This document shows positions 41,039-51,693 of a stretch of DNA of 61,280 nt, in pieces. The DNA lies in contig CAZOYD010000014.1 in assembly GCA_964583985.1 (NCBI GenBank), positions 1-61,280 on the forward strand, given 5' to 3'. Each line of letters opens with the position of its first letter. The stretch's first letter is position 1. The position numbers and the translations under genes were made by a program. This stretch comes from an uncultured archaeon. Lineage in GTDB: Archaea; Asgardarchaeota; Lokiarchaeia; Sigyniarchaeales; SOKP01. The notes below the pieces were generated by a model, which saw only the letters and a program-made list of their open reading frames with translations, did no database searches and was not told the DNA's origin.

Positions 41039-42301
41039 TTGGTATCACTAAATACAATGATAGAATCTGAAACTCCATCCCCAAATTCTAAAAAATCAAA
41101 TATAATATCAGAAACGCTCAAAAAAGTAATGGATTCTGCTAATTATTGTTATGATTGTAATAGATGCGTAACTGTCTGTCCCGTTTCACAATTAGGAATT
41201 TTTTCACCCCGATCCTTGATAAATGATCTTTCCTACTTGACTGTTGAAGATGCGTTAAAAAATAACGATATTTGGACGTGTTTAACATGTGGACAATGTT
41301 CCATCTATTGTCCAATGACACAGGAAAACGCGGGGGTACGGATCCCTGAATTAATATTAGAATTAAGAAAATTATATGGAAAAGAACAAACTCAAACTGA
41401 GAATTTAGCGGAATGTGAAACTCATGATGGTATTTTCCCGTTAATTGCGAAAATAATGGCAGAAAATCCCGCACCACCAAATAAACTTGGATTTTTAGAA
41501 GGTACCGGATATAAGGTTGCAAGTACGGGAGAGATTGCTTATTTTATTGGTTGTATACCGCTAATGCAAGATATTATTTATTATACCGATGTAAATTACG
41601 GGAGCATTCCAAAATCGATTATTGGTCTATTAAATAGTGCCAATATAACACCAGTTGTTTTAAATGAAAAATGTTGTGGACATGATATACTATGGTCTAA
41701 AGGTGATGTTGATACATTTAAGAAGTTAGCAGAATATAACGTGAAATTATATAAAGATGCAGGAGTTAAAACCATAATAGTTAGCTGTGCTGAAGGATAT
41801 CGAACTTGGAAAATTGATTATCCTAAATATGTAGATGAGTTTGATTTTGAGGTATTACATTTTTCTGAATTCTTCTTACGTGAAAATATTCTTGAACACG
41901 TTAGATTCCCTCAGTCTCGCGATATTAAGGTGACCTATCACGATGCCTGCCGGTTGGGTCGCTTGGGTGGAAGATTATATGAAGCTCCCCGTGAATTAAT
42001 CCGATCAATTCCTGGGGTGAAGCTCATAGAAATGCAAAATAATAGAGATGATGCAAAATGTTGTGGAGTCTCTGCCTTTTCTTGTTGTAATGAATATACA
42101 CGTGTTTTAAGACATAATCGCATAAAGGAAGCAATAGAAACAGGAGCTGAATATTTAATTGTACCATGTGTAAAATGCTTGACGCATTTTAATTGTTACC
42201 TTTCAGAACCGGAAGTAGGAGTTAATAATGAATCATTGAAAGGTAAAATTCAAGTTATAGATATTGCAAGTTTTCTTGGAAAACTTCTTTTTCTCCTATA
42301 A
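41039..42301 (+). CDS. HdrD-like heterodisulfide reductase-related Fe-S oxidoreductase
   Basis: CYDCNRCVTVCP, CLTCGQCSIYCP, two CCG domains (EKCCG; YHDAC...KCCG...CVKC). Confidence 0.88.
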   Translation: MVSLNTMIESETPSPNSKKSNIISETLKKVMDSANYCYDCNRCVTVCPVSQLGIFSPRSLINDLSYLTVEDALKNNDIWTCLTCGQCSIYCPMTQENAGVRIPELILELRKLYGKEQTQTENLAECETHDGIFPLIAKIMAENPAPPNKLGFLEGTGYKVASTGEIAYFIGCIPLMQDIIYYTDVNYGSIPKSIIGLLNSANITPVVLNEKCCGHDILWSKGDVDTFKKLAEYNVKLYKDAGVKTIIVSCAEGYRTWKIDYPKYVDEFDFEVLHFSEFFLRENILEHVRFPQSRDIKVTYHDACRLGRLGGRLYEAPRELIRSIPGVKLIEMQNNRDDAKCCGVSAFSCCNEYTRVLRHNRIKEAIETGAEYLIVPCVKCLTHFNCYLSEPEVGVNNESLKGKIQVIDIASFLGKLLFLL

Positions 42302-43378: not shown

Positions 43379-44296
43379 ATGATTACCATTTATCTTTCCT
43401 TAGTCATAATGATAGGTGCGTGGAGTTTCTCATTTGTTCTTGTAGATATGACTTTTGAATTTATGCTTCCTTTATCCGTGGTTTTATATCGCTTTATCAT
43501 TGCATCCGTTACGTATCTCCTCATTGATATCTATTTTTTTGCAGAGAAAAAACTGAAACCTGAGATTTTACAAGACACCCCAAAATATTCAAGAAATGAT
43601 TGGTTAATGATAATCTTGTCTAGTTTTTTTGGGGTTTCTGTATTTTTCTTAACTCAATATGCATCTATTGCACTAATTGGTCCCTCATTACCCGCTTTAT
43701 TTGTCTGTTTATTGTCTCCAGTATTGATTTCTCTTTTTGCTTTAATTCTCTTTAAAGAGAAATTAAATAAAAAAAAAATATGTGGATTTGCTATTGCATC
43801 AATTGGAGCATTCTTATTGGTAACGGGAGGAAATATGCAGAATCTAACTCTTAATTCCCCCAATTTCTTAGGATACTTTTTAGCTTTACTCACTCCATTT
43901 CAATGGGCACTTTATTCAACATTAACTAAAAAAATATCCAATGGGCATTCCAAGATGAAATTAAATAAATATATAAGTTACTTAGGGTTATTTGAAGTAT
44001 TCATTATCATTCTATTGTCTAATCAGCTCGCTGACTTTGTCGAAAACATTATTAATCCTATAGCATTCCTAACAGCTATTTATCTTGGTATTGGATGCTA
44101 CGTGCTTGGATATTATATTTGGCAAAAATCCTTGAGCACATTAAAATCGTTTAAAGTAGCTTCTTTCCTATACATCGAACCATTTCTTACTTTAATCTTT
44201 TCAATCATCTTGCAAAGAACTGAAATTATTGTTTTATGGAATGTGATTGGAGGACTTGTTGTATTAGGTGCTGTAGTGCTTATCAATTATAAATAA
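43379..44296 (+). CDS. DMT/EamA family transporter
   Basis: About 10 TM; LSP...LFKEK, WALY, YIEP motifs. Confidence 0.88.
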   Translation: MITIYLSLVIMIGAWSFSFVLVDMTFEFMLPLSVVLYRFIIASVTYLLIDIYFFAEKKLKPEILQDTPKYSRNDWLMIILSSFFGVSVFFLTQYASIALIGPSLPALFVCLLSPVLISLFALILFKEKLNKKKICGFAIASIGAFLLVTGGNMQNLTLNSPNFLGYFLALLTPFQWALYSTLTKKISNGHSKMKLNKYISYLGLFEVFIIILLSNQLADFVENIINPIAFLTAIYLGIGCYVLGYYIWQKSLSTLKSFKVASFLYIEPFLTLIFSIILQRTEIIVLWNVIGGLVVLGAVVLINYK

Positions 44297-44322: not shown

Positions 44323-45750
44323 TTATTTAAGATGGTTCTCAGTTATCTTTCTTAATTCTTTAAAAAGAATGTCATCAAGAGGCTTAACTGCTGGCTTAGT
44401 TTCCAACTTATTTGCTTCAATTTTGGCTCTCTTTCTTGCTGAATTCGCTCCAGCATCATTCCAAGCATCACGAGACATCCTATCAATAATTGGTCCTGTA
44501 ATAAACAATTCTTTTCTAAATAAACTTAATGTTGAAGGATGTGAAAGTAACTCTTCGGTTTCACTATAATCTTTCAGAATTTCTAAAGCAAAAGGAGTTC
44601 CTCGATCCTCAACTCCTCGCAAAAGCCGTTTTACCATTCCAACAATTTCATTATCAATCAATAATTTTTCCACGCTTTGAGTTGATTCAAAATCAAGCAT
44701 GCCTGGACCGGATACCATGTTAACACCAGCAAGTCCTGCTAAAAGAGCACCCATCCCTCCTTCAAATCCTGCTTGAGCATCTGGGACTTTAGAATCGCTC
44801 AAACCCATGTAAGCATGGGTAGGTATTTTTAATAATTTTCCCATTTCCACGTCCCCCAGATTTATCATCATCGTTTCAATTGCGCCCATTGGAGTAGTCC
44901 CATATTTCATGTCTAATATTGCAGGAGATCCGCCCCAAATCAAAGGAGCGCCTGATTTAGCTAATTGACCAATGACAACGCCAGCCAAGCATTCTGCACA
45001 ATGTTGAGTGATTGACCCAATTAGGGTTATGGGTGCACTCGCACCGGCGAGTGGCATTGAAACAAATTCAGAAGGAATCATGCTTTTAGCAGCATCGATG
45101 AGTGATTGGGTGGTTAAATCTGACCATTTTAATGGGGGACTTGGACAAGCATCAAAGATAGCAAGTGGTTTCCTTGCCAAATCATCTTCAGATAATCTAC
45201 AAGTCAACAAAAGTTCTCTCATTATTGAGAAACTCTCCTTTTTAAATGTGCCCGTAATGACTGGTTTATGGCAATTTGATAATGCAATAAAAAGCCTATG
45301 CCAATCTTGTGCATTTTTGGGTACATCTTGGTAGACAAAAGCCGTGCTTTGTGCTTCGATATATTTCAACTGATCCACAATTTTTGAAAAACGAATGAAA
45401 TCTTTCGAAGTCGCTTCTCTAGTTTTTCCTGAATTTTCATCTAAAATAAGAATTGCTGCAGAACCCGGATCAAAGTGAACGTTATCATCCTTAAGAGTTG
45501 AGTGCTCATTTCCCTCTCGATCATACAAGATAATTTCATCTGGAACCGTGCGTAAGCATTTTTCCACTAAATCTGGAGGAATAAAGAAAGATGACCCTTC
45601 ATTATTTACGCCTTGATTTTTCAACAATTCTCTTGCTTGTTCATTTTCCACGAATACTCCAAGAGTTTCCAATATCTGTTTTGCTTCCTTTAATATTGAA
45701 TTTTTATGTTCTTCATCTAAAACACTTATTTTTGGTCTTAAAATTGTCAT
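44323..45750 (-). CDS. Trimethylamine methyltransferase (MttB) superfamily, non-pyrrolysine member
   Basis: SPPLKW, GASAPITLIG, GLSDSKVPDAQAGFE, GPGMLDF; no in-frame stop. Confidence 0.9.
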   Translation of the reverse strand: MTILRPKISVLDEEHKNSILKEAKQILETLGVFVENEQARELLKNQGVNNEGSSFFIPPDLVEKCLRTVPDEIILYDREGNEHSTLKDDNVHFDPGSAAILILDENSGKTREATSKDFIRFSKIVDQLKYIEAQSTAFVYQDVPKNAQDWHRLFIALSNCHKPVITGTFKKESFSIMRELLLTCRLSEDDLARKPLAIFDACPSPPLKWSDLTTQSLIDAAKSMIPSEFVSMPLAGASAPITLIGSITQHCAECLAGVVIGQLAKSGAPLIWGGSPAILDMKYGTTPMGAIETMMINLGDVEMGKLLKIPTHAYMGLSDSKVPDAQAGFEGGMGALLAGLAGVNMVSGPGMLDFESTQSVEKLLIDNEIVGMVKRLLRGVEDRGTPFALEILKDYSETEELLSHPSTLSLFRKELFITGPIIDRMSRDAWNDAGANSARKRAKIEANKLETKPAVKPLDDILFKELRKITENHLK

Positions 45751-45763
45751 GTTATTACCTCCC
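45751..45763 (-). promoter_or_regulatory. Shine-Dalgarno site of the MttB-family gene
   Basis: Minus strand reads GGGAGGTAATAAC-ATG. Confidence 0.65.
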
Positions 45764-45767
45764 TAAA

Positions 45768-46640
45768 CTACGTCATTTTTTGTTTTATTTCTTGAATTGT
45801 TAGGGGACTCGTTCCACAACATCCTCCAACAATTTTTGCTCCCAAATTTATAATTTTAATGATATCTTGTGCAAATTCTAGTGCTGTTTGGTCATAAACA
45901 GTAATAGATCCTTCAAGTCTCGGCTTACCCGCATTTGGTTTTATGGATATGGGTGTATCTGTTATCTTCTTTAATTCTATCATTATATCAATCATGTCAT
46001 GTGAACCTAAAGTGCAATTTGAGCCCACAACATCTGCACCTTCAATAACTTGGATATCAACGCATTTTTCTAGAGAATCTCCCATGATCGTAAAGAATCC
46101 CCTTTTAGTTTTTTTATACGTCATTGAACTGATAATTGGTTTAGAAGAGACTTCTTTTATCGCCCGAATCGCAGCTCTCATTTCCTCAACATCAGAAATT
46201 GTCTCTACGTGCCAAAGATCAACTCCAAAATTCAATACTTCAACTTGCTTTTTAAAACTCGACTGCCACATATCAACCGTAGCTTTCCCCACTGGTGGTT
46301 TGAATACGCCGGAAGGACCGATATCGCCAACGATGAGGCGATCTTTTTGACGAACGGTATTAATTATCTCCAAAGCCTTTTGATTGATTTCAACTAAATG
46401 TTCCTCGAGATGATGGTTCTTCAGGTTTAGATAGCACGAACCAAAGGTATTCGTTTGAACCATGTCCGAACCTGCTTCATAATATGCTTTATGAATGCTA
46501 CTAATGACTTGGGGTTCTTCAATATTTAAAAGATCTGGTAGTTTTCCCGGTTTTATTCCTCGTTTAATAATTTCTGAACCCATTCCTCCATCAAATAATA
46601 TCGTCTTTGTATCATCCTTTAACCATTCATTAAATAGCAT
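45768..46640 (-). CDS. Homocysteine S-methyltransferase domain protein (stand-alone MetH Hcy domain)
   Basis: FDGGMGSE, TNTFG, GDIGPSG, ETISD, GSNC, KPNAG, GGCCGT. Confidence 0.92.
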   Translation of the reverse strand: MLFNEWLKDDTKTILFDGGMGSEIIKRGIKPGKLPDLLNIEEPQVISSIHKAYYEAGSDMVQTNTFGSCYLNLKNHHLEEHLVEINQKALEIINTVRQKDRLIVGDIGPSGVFKPPVGKATVDMWQSSFKKQVEVLNFGVDLWHVETISDVEEMRAAIRAIKEVSSKPIISSMTYKKTKRGFFTIMGDSLEKCVDIQVIEGADVVGSNCTLGSHDMIDIMIELKKITDTPISIKPNAGKPRLEGSITVYDQTALEFAQDIIKIINLGAKIVGGCCGTSPLTIQEIKQKMT

Positions 46641-46653
46641 CTTTTATCCCTCC
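46641..46653 (-). promoter_or_regulatory. Shine-Dalgarno site of the homocysteine methyltransferase gene
   Basis: Minus strand reads GGAGGGATAAAAG-ATG. Confidence 0.6.
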
Positions 46654-46658
46654 ATTTC

Positions 46659-47297
46659 TCATAAATTTTTTACTAATTTTACGGCATCAACAGCACTATC
46701 AGCATATCCATCAGCCTCACATTCCTCAACCCATTTCCGTGAAACTGGAGCTCCACCTAATATGACCTTAAATTTTGATCGAATTCCTTTTTCTTTTAAT
46801 ATCTCTACAACCTTCTTTTGCCCAGTCATGGTCGTTGTAAGCAACGCGGATACTCCAATTATATTTGCATTCACCTTAATTGCTTCATCAACTATTTTTT
46901 CTGCTGGAACATCTGCTCCCAGATCATGTACATCATACCCGTTTGCGCTTAGCATTGTTCCTACGATAGTTTTCCCTATAGAATGAATATCTCCTTCAAT
47001 CGTTGCGATGACTACAGTTCCTCGATTAAAGGTCTCAGATTGTTCTTTTAAATGAGGTAATATTAATTCCATGGCTTCCTGCATGATGTTTCCTCCTAAC
47101 ATCAATTCAGGCAGGAAAATTTCTCCTTCATCCCAAAGATCCCCAATTTTTCTTATACCAGATCCAAATCCGTGTTCAACCACTTCAAGCAAATTCAAAC
47201 CATCCTTTATCGCACGATTAGCTAACTCTAAGGCTCTTTCTTTATCTAAATTTACGATAGCCTCTGAAATTTCAACATTTAATTCTTCAACTGACAT
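46659..47297 (-). CDS. Methyltransferase cognate corrinoid (B12-binding) protein
   Basis: FLPEL cap domain, GDIHSIGK (DxHxxG), SALLTTTM, GGAP. Confidence 0.93.
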   Translation of the reverse strand: MSVEELNVEISEAIVNLDKERALELANRAIKDGLNLLEVVEHGFGSGIRKIGDLWDEGEIFLPELMLGGNIMQEAMELILPHLKEQSETFNRGTVVIATIEGDIHSIGKTIVGTMLSANGYDVHDLGADVPAEKIVDEAIKVNANIIGVSALLTTTMTGQKKVVEILKEKGIRSKFKVILGGAPVSRKWVEECEADGYADSAVDAVKLVKNL

Positions 47298-47484
47298 CAG
47301 TAATCCACTTTAAAACTCTCCGTTCAATACTTTTAATTTAATTTTGTTTTGTAATTAACATTTCGAAAATGCTTGAATCTGAATTATTATTCCATTATTA
47401 TTCAGATATTTAACCTAGCAAAAATAAATACCTTATAATTTTAAAAACCTATTTTTAAGAATTATAAGATAAAGTGTTTTAATA

Positions 47485-47973
47485 ATGAGCAGGCGTTATT
47501 ATGCTAAAGGAAAGAAAACGTATGCCAAAGATCAAAATTTCGAGCAAGATCAAGTTGGAAAGGAAAAAGAGCGTTATTTAATTAACATATCTTTGATGAG
47601 TTTAAAAACTCTTAAAGATTATGATATATTGGGGTGGCGAGGTGAGTTTTACTTTAAGTGTGACGGTGAGAAGATGTTCAAATCCCGTTGGCCGAATAAG
47701 GGAACCATCAAGCTGCAACGAAATCAAGAGTTTACTTCCAAAGCCGATATGTCTTTATGGAGTCAATTTAAAACTGTGCGTGCTGATCAAAGTATCATCG
47801 TTCCCATTAAAGTAATTCTGAGAGAAAAAGATCCAATGAAAAAGGATTCTACCATAGCTGAACAAGAATATGAAATTCGATTACCTCAAAAGACCGCATA
47901 TGTCATCCTACAAGATGATAAGGAGAAAACAAAGGCTAAGCTCAGAATTCAAGCGACCAGAACGAGATATTAA
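47485..47973 (+). CDS. Hypothetical protein, C2-domain-like beta sandwich
   Basis: DYDILGWRGEFYF and VILREKDPMKKDSTIA resemble C2 loops 1 and 3; basic N-terminus. Confidence 0.5.
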   Translation: MSRRYYAKGKKTYAKDQNFEQDQVGKEKERYLINISLMSLKTLKDYDILGWRGEFYFKCDGEKMFKSRWPNKGTIKLQRNQEFTSKADMSLWSQFKTVRADQSIIVPIKVILREKDPMKKDSTIAEQEYEIRLPQKTAYVILQDDKEKTKAKLRIQATRTRY

Positions 47974-49309: not shown

Positions 49310-49918
49310 TTAGGTATCCTTGATGTTTTCACGGACTTTAAAATCTTTAATATTAGGATATCGATTTTTGAATTCTGAAATTAAATTTTTACATGAGCTA
49401 CAAATAGGTCCTTCTGAAACAAGCAAGACCTTTCCTTCTTTTAATTTATTTAACTCCCATAATTTTGCCATTGTTACGATTAACTTGCGCTCACTGTGAT
49501 ACCAAGGTTCATCTTCTTCATTAGTTTCTTGCGCAGGAAATAATTTTGATATGGGTGCATAAGGATCAATGATTATTTCAGCTGGTCTATTTTTCGGTTC
49601 GACTAATGCTGTACCAGGTATGAATTGCGTTCCCCTCATGGCTAATATATAGCCTTTTTGAGTTAATCCTTTTGAGAATTTGTAATTAAACTTGACGTAA
49701 GCCACGTTGCGATTTTTATCATTCCAATTTTGGCTCTTTCTCACTTGGGTTATAATTGTCTTGTCAGTCAATTTCGCATTTTTGTCTAAATTTAATGCGT
49801 TACATAATGCATCTTCAATCTCCTTTTTGCTAATATCTTTAGAAGAAACGATCCAAGTCATTCTCTTTTGGTAAGATTCTAATTCTTCTGATAATTCGAC
49901 ATTCTTTTCTGTCGTCAT
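49310..49918 (-). CDS. Zn-dependent deaminase, toxin-deaminase (BURPS668_1122-like) type
   Basis: RNVAY, HSERK, SEGPICSSC, EFKNRYPNI. Confidence 0.72.
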   Translation of the reverse strand: MTTEKNVELSEELESYQKRMTWIVSSKDISKKEIEDALCNALNLDKNAKLTDKTIITQVRKSQNWNDKNRNVAYVKFNYKFSKGLTQKGYILAMRGTQFIPGTALVEPKNRPAEIIIDPYAPISKLFPAQETNEEDEPWYHSERKLIVTMAKLWELNKLKEGKVLLVSEGPICSSCKNLISEFKNRYPNIKDFKVRENIKDT

Positions 49919-50040: not shown

Positions 50041-51693
50041 TCACATTTCTGGATCGTTATACACCAAGAGATCCTTCAGTTGGGACATCATGTTATTCGT
50101 CAACCGCTTCAGTTCATCGACATCTGGGACTTCTTTCCCCCAATATTTTTGGTGTTCCATGAAAGGAGGACCTGCTTTTAAGACAGAACCTCTATAGAAG
50201 TTCAGCATCTTAGCGTGTTTTGGATAGGTATTTTCGGTTCCTGTGATAGCAACTAAAATAATAGGTACTTGTTTCTCAATCGCTAAGCGCATTGCTCCAG
50301 TATGACCCTCAAGGAGTTCTCCATTCCCAGGATTTGTGGTACCTTCGGGATACACGCACACCAAATGACCTTGATCCAAGAGATATTTAGCATAATTAAA
50401 GGAATCTACATCATGCATTCCCCTCTTGAGTGGAAAAGCGTGATGGTTGCGAATCCAAGCATTTACTATCGGAAATTTGAACAACGTCTGTTTAGACATT
50501 TGATATATTATCCTTCGTGGCTTATTATGGATAATACTCGTTGCTAATAAAATGACATCCCATTCAGAATTATGAGTTGCACAAAGTACTGCTGGTCCTT
50601 CTTTTGGAATGTATTTCTCAAAGTCAATAACTTTGTAAGGTATCATTAATTGTGACCAGTTATGAACTATTTCGCCTGAAATTGTGTAGACAAATTTTTG
50701 AAAGGGTTCGCGTAGATGAAATTCTTCTAAAGCTCTTAAAGAACCGTACCATATATCATCAAGCGTCCACAAAAATCCCATCCCGAAGTCTTTAAAGAAT
50801 CGCTTTATATTGAAAGATGATTCCTTTTCTTTTTCAATTGGTTTTTCAGCTAATTCTTCTGCTGTTTTGCCATATGTTCCTTCATGAAGTTCAGATATAA
50901 CCGCGCGTAATTCATTTGTAAGACGTTTTATATCTTCATAGGACATCTTATTAATGTCATATTTATCATAATATAAGGGATCTCCAACTCTTACTTTAAC
51001 TTGAGTTGGCTTCATTAATAATTGACCCTTTGCAAGTGCGTGTTCTGACCCTAAAACAGCCATCGGAACGATAGGAACTCCCGTTTCTATAGCTAATCTA
51101 ACGGCACCAGTTTTAAATTCTCCTAATTTACCCTCTTTGGAACGAGTGCCTTCTGGGAATATGCCAACCCATTCACCACCATTAATTATTTCCTTAGCTT
51201 GCATCCATCCAAACGCAGGATTCTCTCTATCTAATTTAAACGCCCCGAGATTTGTAAAGAGTGTTTTGACAATGGGTGTCTTAAAATTTTCTAATTTGCT
51301 CATGTAGCGAATACGTCTGTGGCAAGCAGCACCGAGGAAAAAAGGATCAAGGTGAGAAAGATGATTAGAAACTACAATGCCTGGACCATATTCAGGAAAC
51401 ATGTTTTTGTTTGGATATTCTGCTTTAAAATTCCATAAAAGCCGGCAGACAAGTTTCACGTAAAAATAAGCGGCCCACCATTGTAATCTACCCTCTTCTT
51501 TTTCAAAATCAATAGCCTTTATGAATTCCCGGTATTTATCGTTTATAGGATCAATGGGGTTAAGTTTTGTCAATTTATAAAGAAATGTCTCATGCCCCTT
51601 TTCATATTCGAGGTCGGTTTTCATTTTCTCTTCTAAAAGCTTCTCGTGATCGATTTCCTCGTAAGCATCATAATTTCTTTTTTCTAAATCCAT
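50041..51693 (-). CDS. Acyltransferase with two tandem PlsC/LPLAT domains
   Basis: Domain 1 NHLSHLD...FPEGTRS; domain 2 THNSEWD...YPEGT. Confidence 0.9.
   Translation of the reverse strand: MDLEKRNYDAYEEIDHEKLLEEKMKTDLEYEKGHETFLYKLTKLNPIDPINDKYREFIKAIDFEKEEGRLQWWAAYFYVKLVCRLLWNFKAEYPNKNMFPEYGPGIVVSNHLSHLDPFFLGAACHRRIRYMSKLENFKTPIVKTLFTNLGAFKLDRENPAFGWMQAKEIINGGEWVGIFPEGTRSKEGKLGEFKTGAVRLAIETGVPIVPMAVLGSEHALAKGQLLMKPTQVKVRVGDPLYYDKYDINKMSYEDIKRLTNELRAVISELHEGTYGKTAEELAEKPIEKEKESSFNIKRFFKDFGMGFLWTLDDIWYGSLRALEEFHLREPFQKFVYTISGEIVHNWSQLMIPYKVIDFEKYIPKEGPAVLCATHNSEWDVILLATSIIHNKPRRIIYQMSKQTLFKFPIVNAWIRNHHAFPLKRGMHDVDSFNYAKYLLDQGHLVCVYPEGTTNPGNGELLEGHTGAMRLAIEKQVPIILVAITGTENTYPKHAKMLNFYRGSVLKAGPPFMEHQKYWGKEVPDVDELKRLTNNMMSQLKDLLVYNDPEM

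Follow-up and report, generated by a model that had tools for sequence, protein, structure and literature searches.

The closest described relative of the locus analysed here is a bacterial gene cassette reported by Williams et al. 2022 (Environ Microbiol, PMC9324843) from Electryoneota and 'diverse bacteria': it consists of a non-pyrrolysine (non-Pyl) MttB/MtgB homologue, adjacent MetH-type homocysteine-binding and corrinoid proteins, and a protein with an S-adenosylmethionine (SAM)-binding activation domain. Its authors proposed, as a hypothesis only, that it makes methionine by a new corrinoid-dependent route from an unknown donor of methyl groups, so the idea of MttB-fed corrinoid methionine synthesis is not new and was published for bacteria in 2022. 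The present analysis concerns three genes that encode a corrinoid carrier protein (CorP), a homocysteine S-methyltransferase module (HcyMT) and an MttB-superfamily methyltransferase in an uncultured Asgard archaeon (Lokiarchaeia; Sigyniarchaeales; SOKP01). They lie on a 61,280-nt stretch of DNA (the window), contig CAZOYD010000014.1 (C14) of assembly GCA_964583985.1, which comprises 3.80 Mb in 138 contigs and is estimated to be 100% complete and 5% contaminated.

The window shares the three core proteins with the Williams cassette, and its MttB protein falls inside the same clade, with the clade-invariant residues. The two differ in the host, in the activation-protein gene, which is neither in the cassette here nor in the 40 genomes of the genus that were searched, and in the cassette being the only recognisable methionine synthase of this genome, whereas the published metagenome-assembled genomes also carry full-length MetH.

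Genetic evidence from Ruegeria shows that one corrinoid protein serves both an MttB-family enzyme and a PF02574 enzyme (Mausz et al. 2025, PMC12478193). The MtgBCDE system of Ruegeria pomeroyi and Phaeobacter inhibens (PMC12478193, bioRxiv 10.64898/2025.12.19.695462) resembles the present cassette in having an MttB-family first methyltransferase (MT1), a PF02574 module and one B12 carrier, with demethylation linked to methionine synthesis. It differs in three respects: the pterin module MtgD is essential there for both functions and has no counterpart in the cassette here; mtgE usually lies away from mtgBCD and is down-regulated on glycine betaine, whereas the MttB and HcyMT genes are close neighbours here; and the glycine-betaine-binding residues are not conserved here. 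Separate homocysteine (Hcy) and B12 modules also occur in the split MetH of P. inhibens, which needs a reductive activase (Price et al. 2018, as cited in PMC12478193). The window proteins share this separation, as well as the zinc triad, the MetH motifs and the B12 motif DxHxxG of split and canonical MetH. Unlike canonical MetH, the cluster has no pterin (methyl-tetrahydrofolate, methyl-THF) module, and CorP is of the methylamine-methyltransferase cognate type (TIGR02370) rather than MetH-derived.

The MtgB/MtgC/MtgA system of Desulfitobacterium hafniense (Ticak 2014; Picking 2026, PMC13080624) likewise pairs a non-Pyl MT1, with leucine at the pyrrolysine position, with a cognate corrinoid protein, but its second methyltransferase (MT2) is MtgA, an MtrH-family enzyme acting to THF, where the window has a homocysteine enzyme. 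The core-MetE proteins MesA-D (Price et al. 2021, PMC7857596) make methionine without a folate-binding domain and probably take the methyl group from corrinoid proteins; neither MttB nor Asgard archaea are mentioned in that paper. They share the missing folate-binding domain with the present cassette but belong to PF01717, which is unrelated to PF02574. A paper on Asgard metabolism noted non-Pyl MttB, corrinoid and MtrH proteins and did not mention methionine.

Proposed function and domain assignments

The three genes are co-directional according to the open reading frame (ORF) calls, in the order CorP, HcyMT, MttB (Table 1), and they probably encode a split-protein cobalamin-dependent methionine synthase, in which a methyl group would pass from its donor through MttB to the cobalt of the corrinoid protein and then to homocysteine. 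The MttB-family enzyme would move the methyl group from a small non-pterin donor onto the Co(I) corrinoid protein, and the MetH-type zinc enzyme would pass it from methyl-Co(III) to homocysteine, yielding methionine. Oxidised cofactor would be repaired by a MetH-activation-domain-like protein or by a RamA-type activase, encoded within the cassette in most lineages; this genus lacks the activation gene, and an unlinked RACo/AcsV-like activase would be the sole candidate that the genome offers. In this scheme, the course of the methyl group from donor to acceptor, the role of homocysteine as that acceptor, the type of donor and the partner for reactivation are all predicted. Observed directly were the domains of the three proteins, their catalytic motifs, the conservation of the linkage and the lack of another recognisable methionine synthase, as follows.

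All Pfam domain E-values across the three proteins were between 1e-19 and 1e-70, well past chance. CorP combines a cap domain and a Rossmann B12 domain (PF02607, 69 bits; PF02310, 97 bits) and passes the NCBIfam model TIGR02370 'methyltransferase cognate corrinoid protein' (226.5 bits, cut-off 215). Its DxHxxG motif reads DIHSIG (residues 103-108), with His105 encoded at 46983-46985. HcyMT matches S-methyl_trans (PF02574) with 207 bits, and its closest homologues (83-85% identical) come from Promethearchaeota/Lokiarchaeota archaea. It carries the zinc ligands Cys209 (46014-46016) and Cys274/Cys275 (45816-45821) and the motifs Glu146-Thr147 and N236-A-G-x-P240 common to MetH. In 87 operon-linked homologues, conservation of the zinc cysteine triad and both motifs is 95% or more, and the MetH sequences compared have them too.

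A sequence-only reading of the window had described the three ORFs, their 18- and 17-nt gaps and the Shine-Dalgarno motifs, and every detail was reproduced; in both spacers, a GGAGG-type site stands a few bases 5' of the ATG. Its assignment of a MetH-type homocysteine module agrees with the best match in the Protein Data Bank (PDB), the Hcy module of T. maritima MetH (1q7m, 167.6 bits), as compared with 55.8 bits for BHMT and 43 for MmuM.

The NCBIfam matches of HcyMT, all below cut-off, were to the bacterial BHMT model (180 bits) and to the YitJ N-terminal half (233 bits). Such matches would suit an adjacency without functional meaning, in which HcyMT is an S-methylmethionine/SAM- or betaine-dependent enzyme (MmuM/BHMT-like) that does not use CorP, while MttB and CorP form an ordinary methylotrophy pair. 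This explanation is highly improbable given the PDB scores and the retention of the MetH-type N-A-G-x-P motif; the 17-18 nt spacers with ribosome-binding sites, the absence of an MT2 of any other kind from the cassette, the linkage kept across Asgard families and in many bacterial phyla, and the broad similarity of the two protein trees (see below) also argue against it.

Table 1. Features of the cassette and its borders in the window (positions are those of the forward strand).
Feature	Position	Strand	Basis
Corrinoid (B12-binding) carrier protein, CorP, 212 aa	46659-47297	-	Pfam, NCBIfam, DxHxxG motif
Intergenic spacer, 18 nt, GAAATGGAGGGATAAAAG, with GGAGGG ribosome-binding-like site	46641-46658	-	Read from sequence
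MetH-type homocysteine S-methyltransferase module, HcyMT, 290 aa	45768-46640	-	PF02574, PDB comparison
Intergenic spacer, 17 nt, TTTAGGGAGGTAATAAC, with GGGAGG ribosome-binding-like site	45751-45767	-	Read from sequence
Non-pyrrolysine MttB-superfamily methyltransferase, 475 aa, presumed methyl-donor:corrinoid methyltransferase (MT1)	44323-45750	-	PF06253, alignments, tree
AT-rich region between the corrinoid gene and a divergent 162-aa ORF; presumed promoter	47298-47484	-	Sequence read
EamA gene, convergent with the MttB end of the cluster	43379-44296	+	Pfam

Conservation of the cassette in Asgard archaea

The HcyMT gene was found in 160 of the 399 Asgard genomes searched, mostly in single copy. 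The order CorP-HcyMT-MttB is kept in all 29 close Asgard loci. Further afield, 20 loci were compared from genera at a greater distance and from four other Asgard families; the three genes stand together in 17 of them, CorP and HcyMT being always adjacent and MttB lying upstream of CorP in one. The claim that the three genes form one conserved unit therefore holds over these loci. The MttB protein of the distant loci is the ortholog (47-75% identical), as compared with 25-29% identity for the four other MttB paralogs of the genome. The remaining three loci hold second copies of HcyMT, whose branches fall within the Asgard clade; these copies (L065:5998-6891, L066:5980-6873 and L071:5977-6870) are 50-53% identical and have no corrinoid or MttB neighbours, and one of them is near an APH/choline-kinase-like gene.

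Relatives add a MetH-type activation protein to the cassette: in the Asgard families f13, f15 and f18, a gene of about 215 aa between HcyMT and MttB is recognised by the model of the MetH activation domain, PF02965 (28-40 bits against a cut-off of 25). With this predicted activation-like gene, the cassette thus is three of the four MetH modules, with the MttB-family protein in the pterin module's place. The sequence-only reading had stated that the cluster itself contains no pterin-binding or reactivation gene, as was borne out by the Pfam and NCBIfam searches; PF02965 was without a match in the window, in the genome and in the 40 genomes of the genus.

A pterin methyltransferase, whose usual presence in the operons of relatives had been named beforehand as the result that would speak against the proposal, was found, inside the cluster or adjoining it, in 0/48 Asgard loci and in 3/88 other loci, and MtrH in none of them. 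Two of the three pterin-bearing loci are sisters with the order CorP-MttB-pterin-HcyMT, and the third has a complete MetH next door. The sister loci (L120:2411-6180 and L122:5307-9173) are bacterial, one being on a Gemmatimonadota chromosome, and each forms an all-in-one, MtgBCDE-like cluster.

Candidate methionine synthesis genes in the genome

The cassette is the only recognisable methionine synthase of the genome. Its HcyMT is the sole PF02574 gene, and a profile search of the 138-contig assembly gave no match to PF01717 (MetE or core-MetE). There is no MetH-type pterin module: the two ORFs of the genome that match PF00809 (Pterin_bind), on contigs C12 and C29, were considered as hidden MetH pterin modules and rejected, as they are a dihydropteroate synthase (DHPS; TIGR01496, 196 bits against 162.6) and an archaeal DHPS-like protein (TIGR00284). 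Both genome searches had been proposed in the sequence-only reading. That for a MetH pterin domain returned only these DHPS and DHPS-like ORFs; that for a RamA-like activator did return one RACo homologue, which is unlinked and scores best as AcsV-like.

A S-adenosylhomocysteine (SAH) hydrolase is encoded in the genome, and homocysteine would therefore be produced. The hydrolase match (C51:23375-23992) is in two pieces, in a 345-aa frame as compared with about 425 aa in relatives, and the gene may be truncated or misassembled.

Across Asgard archaea, strong core-MetE matches of the MesA-D type fall in families without this cassette: HcyMT was found in none of f8, f11, f21, f26 and f27. Conversely, PF01717 and HcyMT were present in 0/40 and 34/40 genomes of the genus, in 0/31 and 25/31 of f13, and in 0/12 and 12/12 of f18, respectively. 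This complementarity is supportive only, since kinship makes the genomes non-independent and the contrast is blurred in sister genera by weak matches to PF01717. These matches are to ORFs of about 350 aa (e.g. G185:C2:31168-31737), cover only the C-terminal half at 25-45 bits and occur in many genomes that have the cassette as well. They may encode a core-MetE-like synthase or another enzyme of the URO-D clan, and none is present in this genome or genus.

The identity of the methyl acceptor was considered in the light of these results. PF02574 enzymes have, as is generally known, a common zinc-thiolate chemistry, and a different thiol acceptor had already been raised in the sequence-only reading. 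In addition, mixed corrinoid methyltransferase systems can methylate non-native thiols (PMC13618148). The zinc enzyme might then methylate another thiol or a selenol, or the system might be a catabolic demethylase with a thiol sink, and not a methionine synthase. This is considered very unlikely: the nearest structural relatives of HcyMT are MetH Hcy modules, E146-T147, N236-A-G-x-P240 and the zinc triad are kept over the 87 homologues, the cassettes of relatives contain a MetH activation-like gene, the distribution is complementary to that of core-MetE in Asgard families, and the enzyme is the sole candidate methionine synthase in the genome.

Other methyltransferases and possible pterin input

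The genome encodes two unlinked MtrH/MtgA-family proteins, on contigs C28 (253 bits with the MtrH family model, 211 bits with MtgA) and C4, and has CODH/ACS genes, including CdhD homologues. CorP and HcyMT could hence be a real synthase core that is fed from methyl-tetrahydromethanopterin (methyl-H4MPT) or methyl-THF by the unlinked MtrH/MtgA-family enzymes, mirroring MtgC/MtgD/MtgE of Ruegeria, with MttB as an extra input or as part of a catabolic demethylation through the same CorP towards the Wood-Ljungdahl pathway. The several other methyltransferase systems of the genome fit such a scheme, as does R. pomeroyi, where MtgD is unlinked yet essential for both functions (PMC12478193). However, neither MtrH gene adjoins any corrinoid gene, the cassettes of the 48 Asgard loci contain neither MtrH nor a pterin gene, it is the MttB ortholog and not a pterin module that is co-inherited with HcyMT across Asgard families and bacterial phyla, and the seven other corrinoid proteins of the genome could serve catabolic routes. 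Feeding from a pterin in trans is accordingly judged unlikely. The folate/H4MPT-independent route claimed in the sequence-only reading was nevertheless overstated: the two MtrH/MtgA-family homologues could act in trans, so H4MPT-independence is not established.

The methyltransferase repertoire is large for a non-methanogen. Two of the four further MttB paralogs flank a corrinoid gene, one is beside a URO-D/MtaA-like gene and one is beside PIG-L and MFS genes; at least four corrinoid and URO-D-family pairs are also encoded. These methyltransferase loci are C98:5177-9004, C60:2755-5320, C31:18511-19938 and those on contigs C127, C25, C43 and C24.

Several points weigh against a split methionine synthase fed by MttB. 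A literature search for a biochemical or genetic test of the cassette found none. The activation gene is present in 0/40 genomes of the genus, and the sole RACo homologue is the unlinked, AcsV-like one. The C28 and C4 gene products could methylate CorP from methyl-H4MPT in trans. It is odd that a housekeeping methionine synthase should rely on a donor that is unassigned and possibly external, and no transporter or catabolic gene is consistently linked to the cassette. Finally, with 138 contigs and an estimated contamination of 5%, absences from the assembly are not proof.

The MttB homologue and its methyl donor

The MttB homologue matches MTTB (PF06253) with 238 bits and the pyrrolysine MttB equivalog TIGR02369 with 360 bits, under the cut-off of 525. 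There is no in-frame UAG at the active-site position: the codon is TTG (44800-44802), and in the phmmer alignment the encoded Leu317 is opposite X (pyrrolysine) of M. barkeri MttB (7xcl), as stated in the sequence-only reading for the leucine of YMGLSDSK. D. hafniense MtgB (2qne) likewise has leucine at this position. The Rfam model PYLIS_3 (pyrrolysine insertion sequence of mttB) matched the minus strand at 44703-44802 (52.3 bits, gathering threshold 38). It was rejected as a recoding signal: the match starts exactly at the Leu317 TTG of a gene without UAG and spans the most conserved coding stretch, which points to coding-sequence homology. PYLIS_3 can thus fire on non-Pyl MttB genes.

In MtgB, glycine betaine is bound by Y97, R312, H348 and F356, as found by mutagenesis and in a ligand-bound structure; R312 is reported to be conserved in all characterised members, the substrates of which are acidic quaternary amines (PMC13080624). 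In the alignment to 2qne (phmmer, equivalences read by hand), the counterparts of these residues are S97, H312, a gap of one residue and E355. The invariant positions of the MttB clade are S97, D200, C202, H312, Y314, F354 and E355, which are nearly invariant over all 133 members and different in the paralogs. Since all four binding residues are replaced, including R312 by histidine, the donor is probably not glycine betaine bound in the manner of MtgB, and since the substituted positions are near-invariant across the clade, the alignment implies one conserved donor for all of its members. These replacements, clade-invariant and including the conserved arginine, speak against the quaternary amines (betaine, carnitine or proline betaine) that the sequence-only reading had favoured.

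The donor is probably not a pterin either. Of five bacterial genomes with the cassette, three also encode full-length MetH and one MetE; the presence of MetH alongside the cassette, together with MttB and a pterin module in two single clusters, indicates that the two modules are not redundant. The neighbourhood gave no hint of the donor: among 97 flanking ORFs of HcyMT-linked loci, no transporter, catabolic or other family occurred more than four times. It is tentatively suggested, as a possibility that is itself rather doubtful, that the clade uses a donor type new to the MttB superfamily, which is not an acidic quaternary amine; onium compounds, neutral or cationic, might serve, as might a metabolite common inside cells. 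Given such a donor, Lokiarchaeia-type Asgard archaea would have in the cassette their housekeeping methionine synthase, independent of pterins, and many sediment bacteria would have in it an accessory one.

Bacterial relatives and phylogenetic trees

The species representatives of GTDB were scanned with the MttB-clade alignment, which gave at least 590 stretches, at least 572 of them encoding relatives. Locus counts were taken over the best 80 of these relatives (L092-L171), all of which are bacterial, from Zixibacteria, Acidobacteriota/Aminicenantes, Myxococcota, Ignavibacteria, Krumholzibacteriota, KSB1, Gemmatimonadota, Planctomycetota, Latescibacterota and others. HcyMT is encoded within 4 kb on the same strand in 37 of the 80 loci. 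An activation-like gene is present in 44 and a RamA-type activase in 15, with both in only one, and from this near mutual exclusion the two look like alternative solutions for cofactor repair.

The MttB tree (FastTree, 144 sequences, rooted on the own-genome paralogs C98a and C60) contains a clade of 133 tips with the window protein and the bacterial cassette members, split from the other paralogs with a support of 0.98. Within it, an Asgard group (0.976) stands beside a bacterial group (0.963), and linkage to HcyMT is spread over both. In the HcyMT tree, the operon-linked proteins are separate from the N-terminal modules of canonical MetH (that of E. coli and those of two bacterial MetH). One group (0.942) takes in all of the Asgard sequences except two, which are placed beside it with negligible support. 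Row L173 of this tree is a stop-to-stop frame with untranslated sequence, an artefact to be ignored. The two protein trees are broadly similar.

Genomic neighbourhood of the cassette

No Rfam element was found in the upstream region at 47298-47484. No SAM or B12 riboswitch was detected upstream of the cassette in the window or in 11 bacterial loci (gathering thresholds).

The EamA transporter gene does converge on the cluster, as the sequence-only reading had it, but is kept as a neighbour only within the genus: it adjoins the cassette in 8/9 sampled genomes of the genus and is not found there in the closest relative or in other genera or families, and only two bacterial or metagenomic loci have an EamA gene nearby. 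EamA was therefore rejected as a component of the system and treated as genus-level synteny.

The divergent 162-aa ORF (47485-47973, plus strand) has no Pfam or NCBIfam match; many genomes of the same genus have it next to the operon, with 76-88% identity, and no copy was seen at the loci of other genera. A 420-aa protein with a 4Fe-4S dicluster and two CCG domains (HdrD/TfrB/GlpC-like) is encoded at 41039-42301 (plus strand), and its place, two genes away from the operon, is conserved in one or more genomes of the genus. Two further proteins are encoded on the minus strand: one of 202 aa at 49310-49918, which contains a toxin-deaminase domain of the BURPS668_1122 type (37.8 bits), and one of 550 aa at 50041-51693, which contains two PlsC-type acyltransferase domains.

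Implications

The cluster is a real, conserved three-gene Asgard form of a cassette already described in bacteria. On the sequence evidence, it most likely acts as a B12-dependent methionine synthase that receives its methyl group, via the MttB-family enzyme, from a non-pterin donor. If so, a large share of Asgard archaea (HcyMT being present in most genomes of the genus as well as in the 160 noted above) would form or recycle methionine through B12, with neither folate nor H4MPT involved, and the donor would couple their one-carbon and SAM cycles to the supply of cobamide and to one specific methyl compound, whether from the environment or from the cell. The cassette is small, self-contained and widespread, its relatives among the GTDB species representatives extending over many uncultured bacterial phyla. 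Once established, its function would annotate thousands of genes, and it could add a substrate class to the MttB superfamily.

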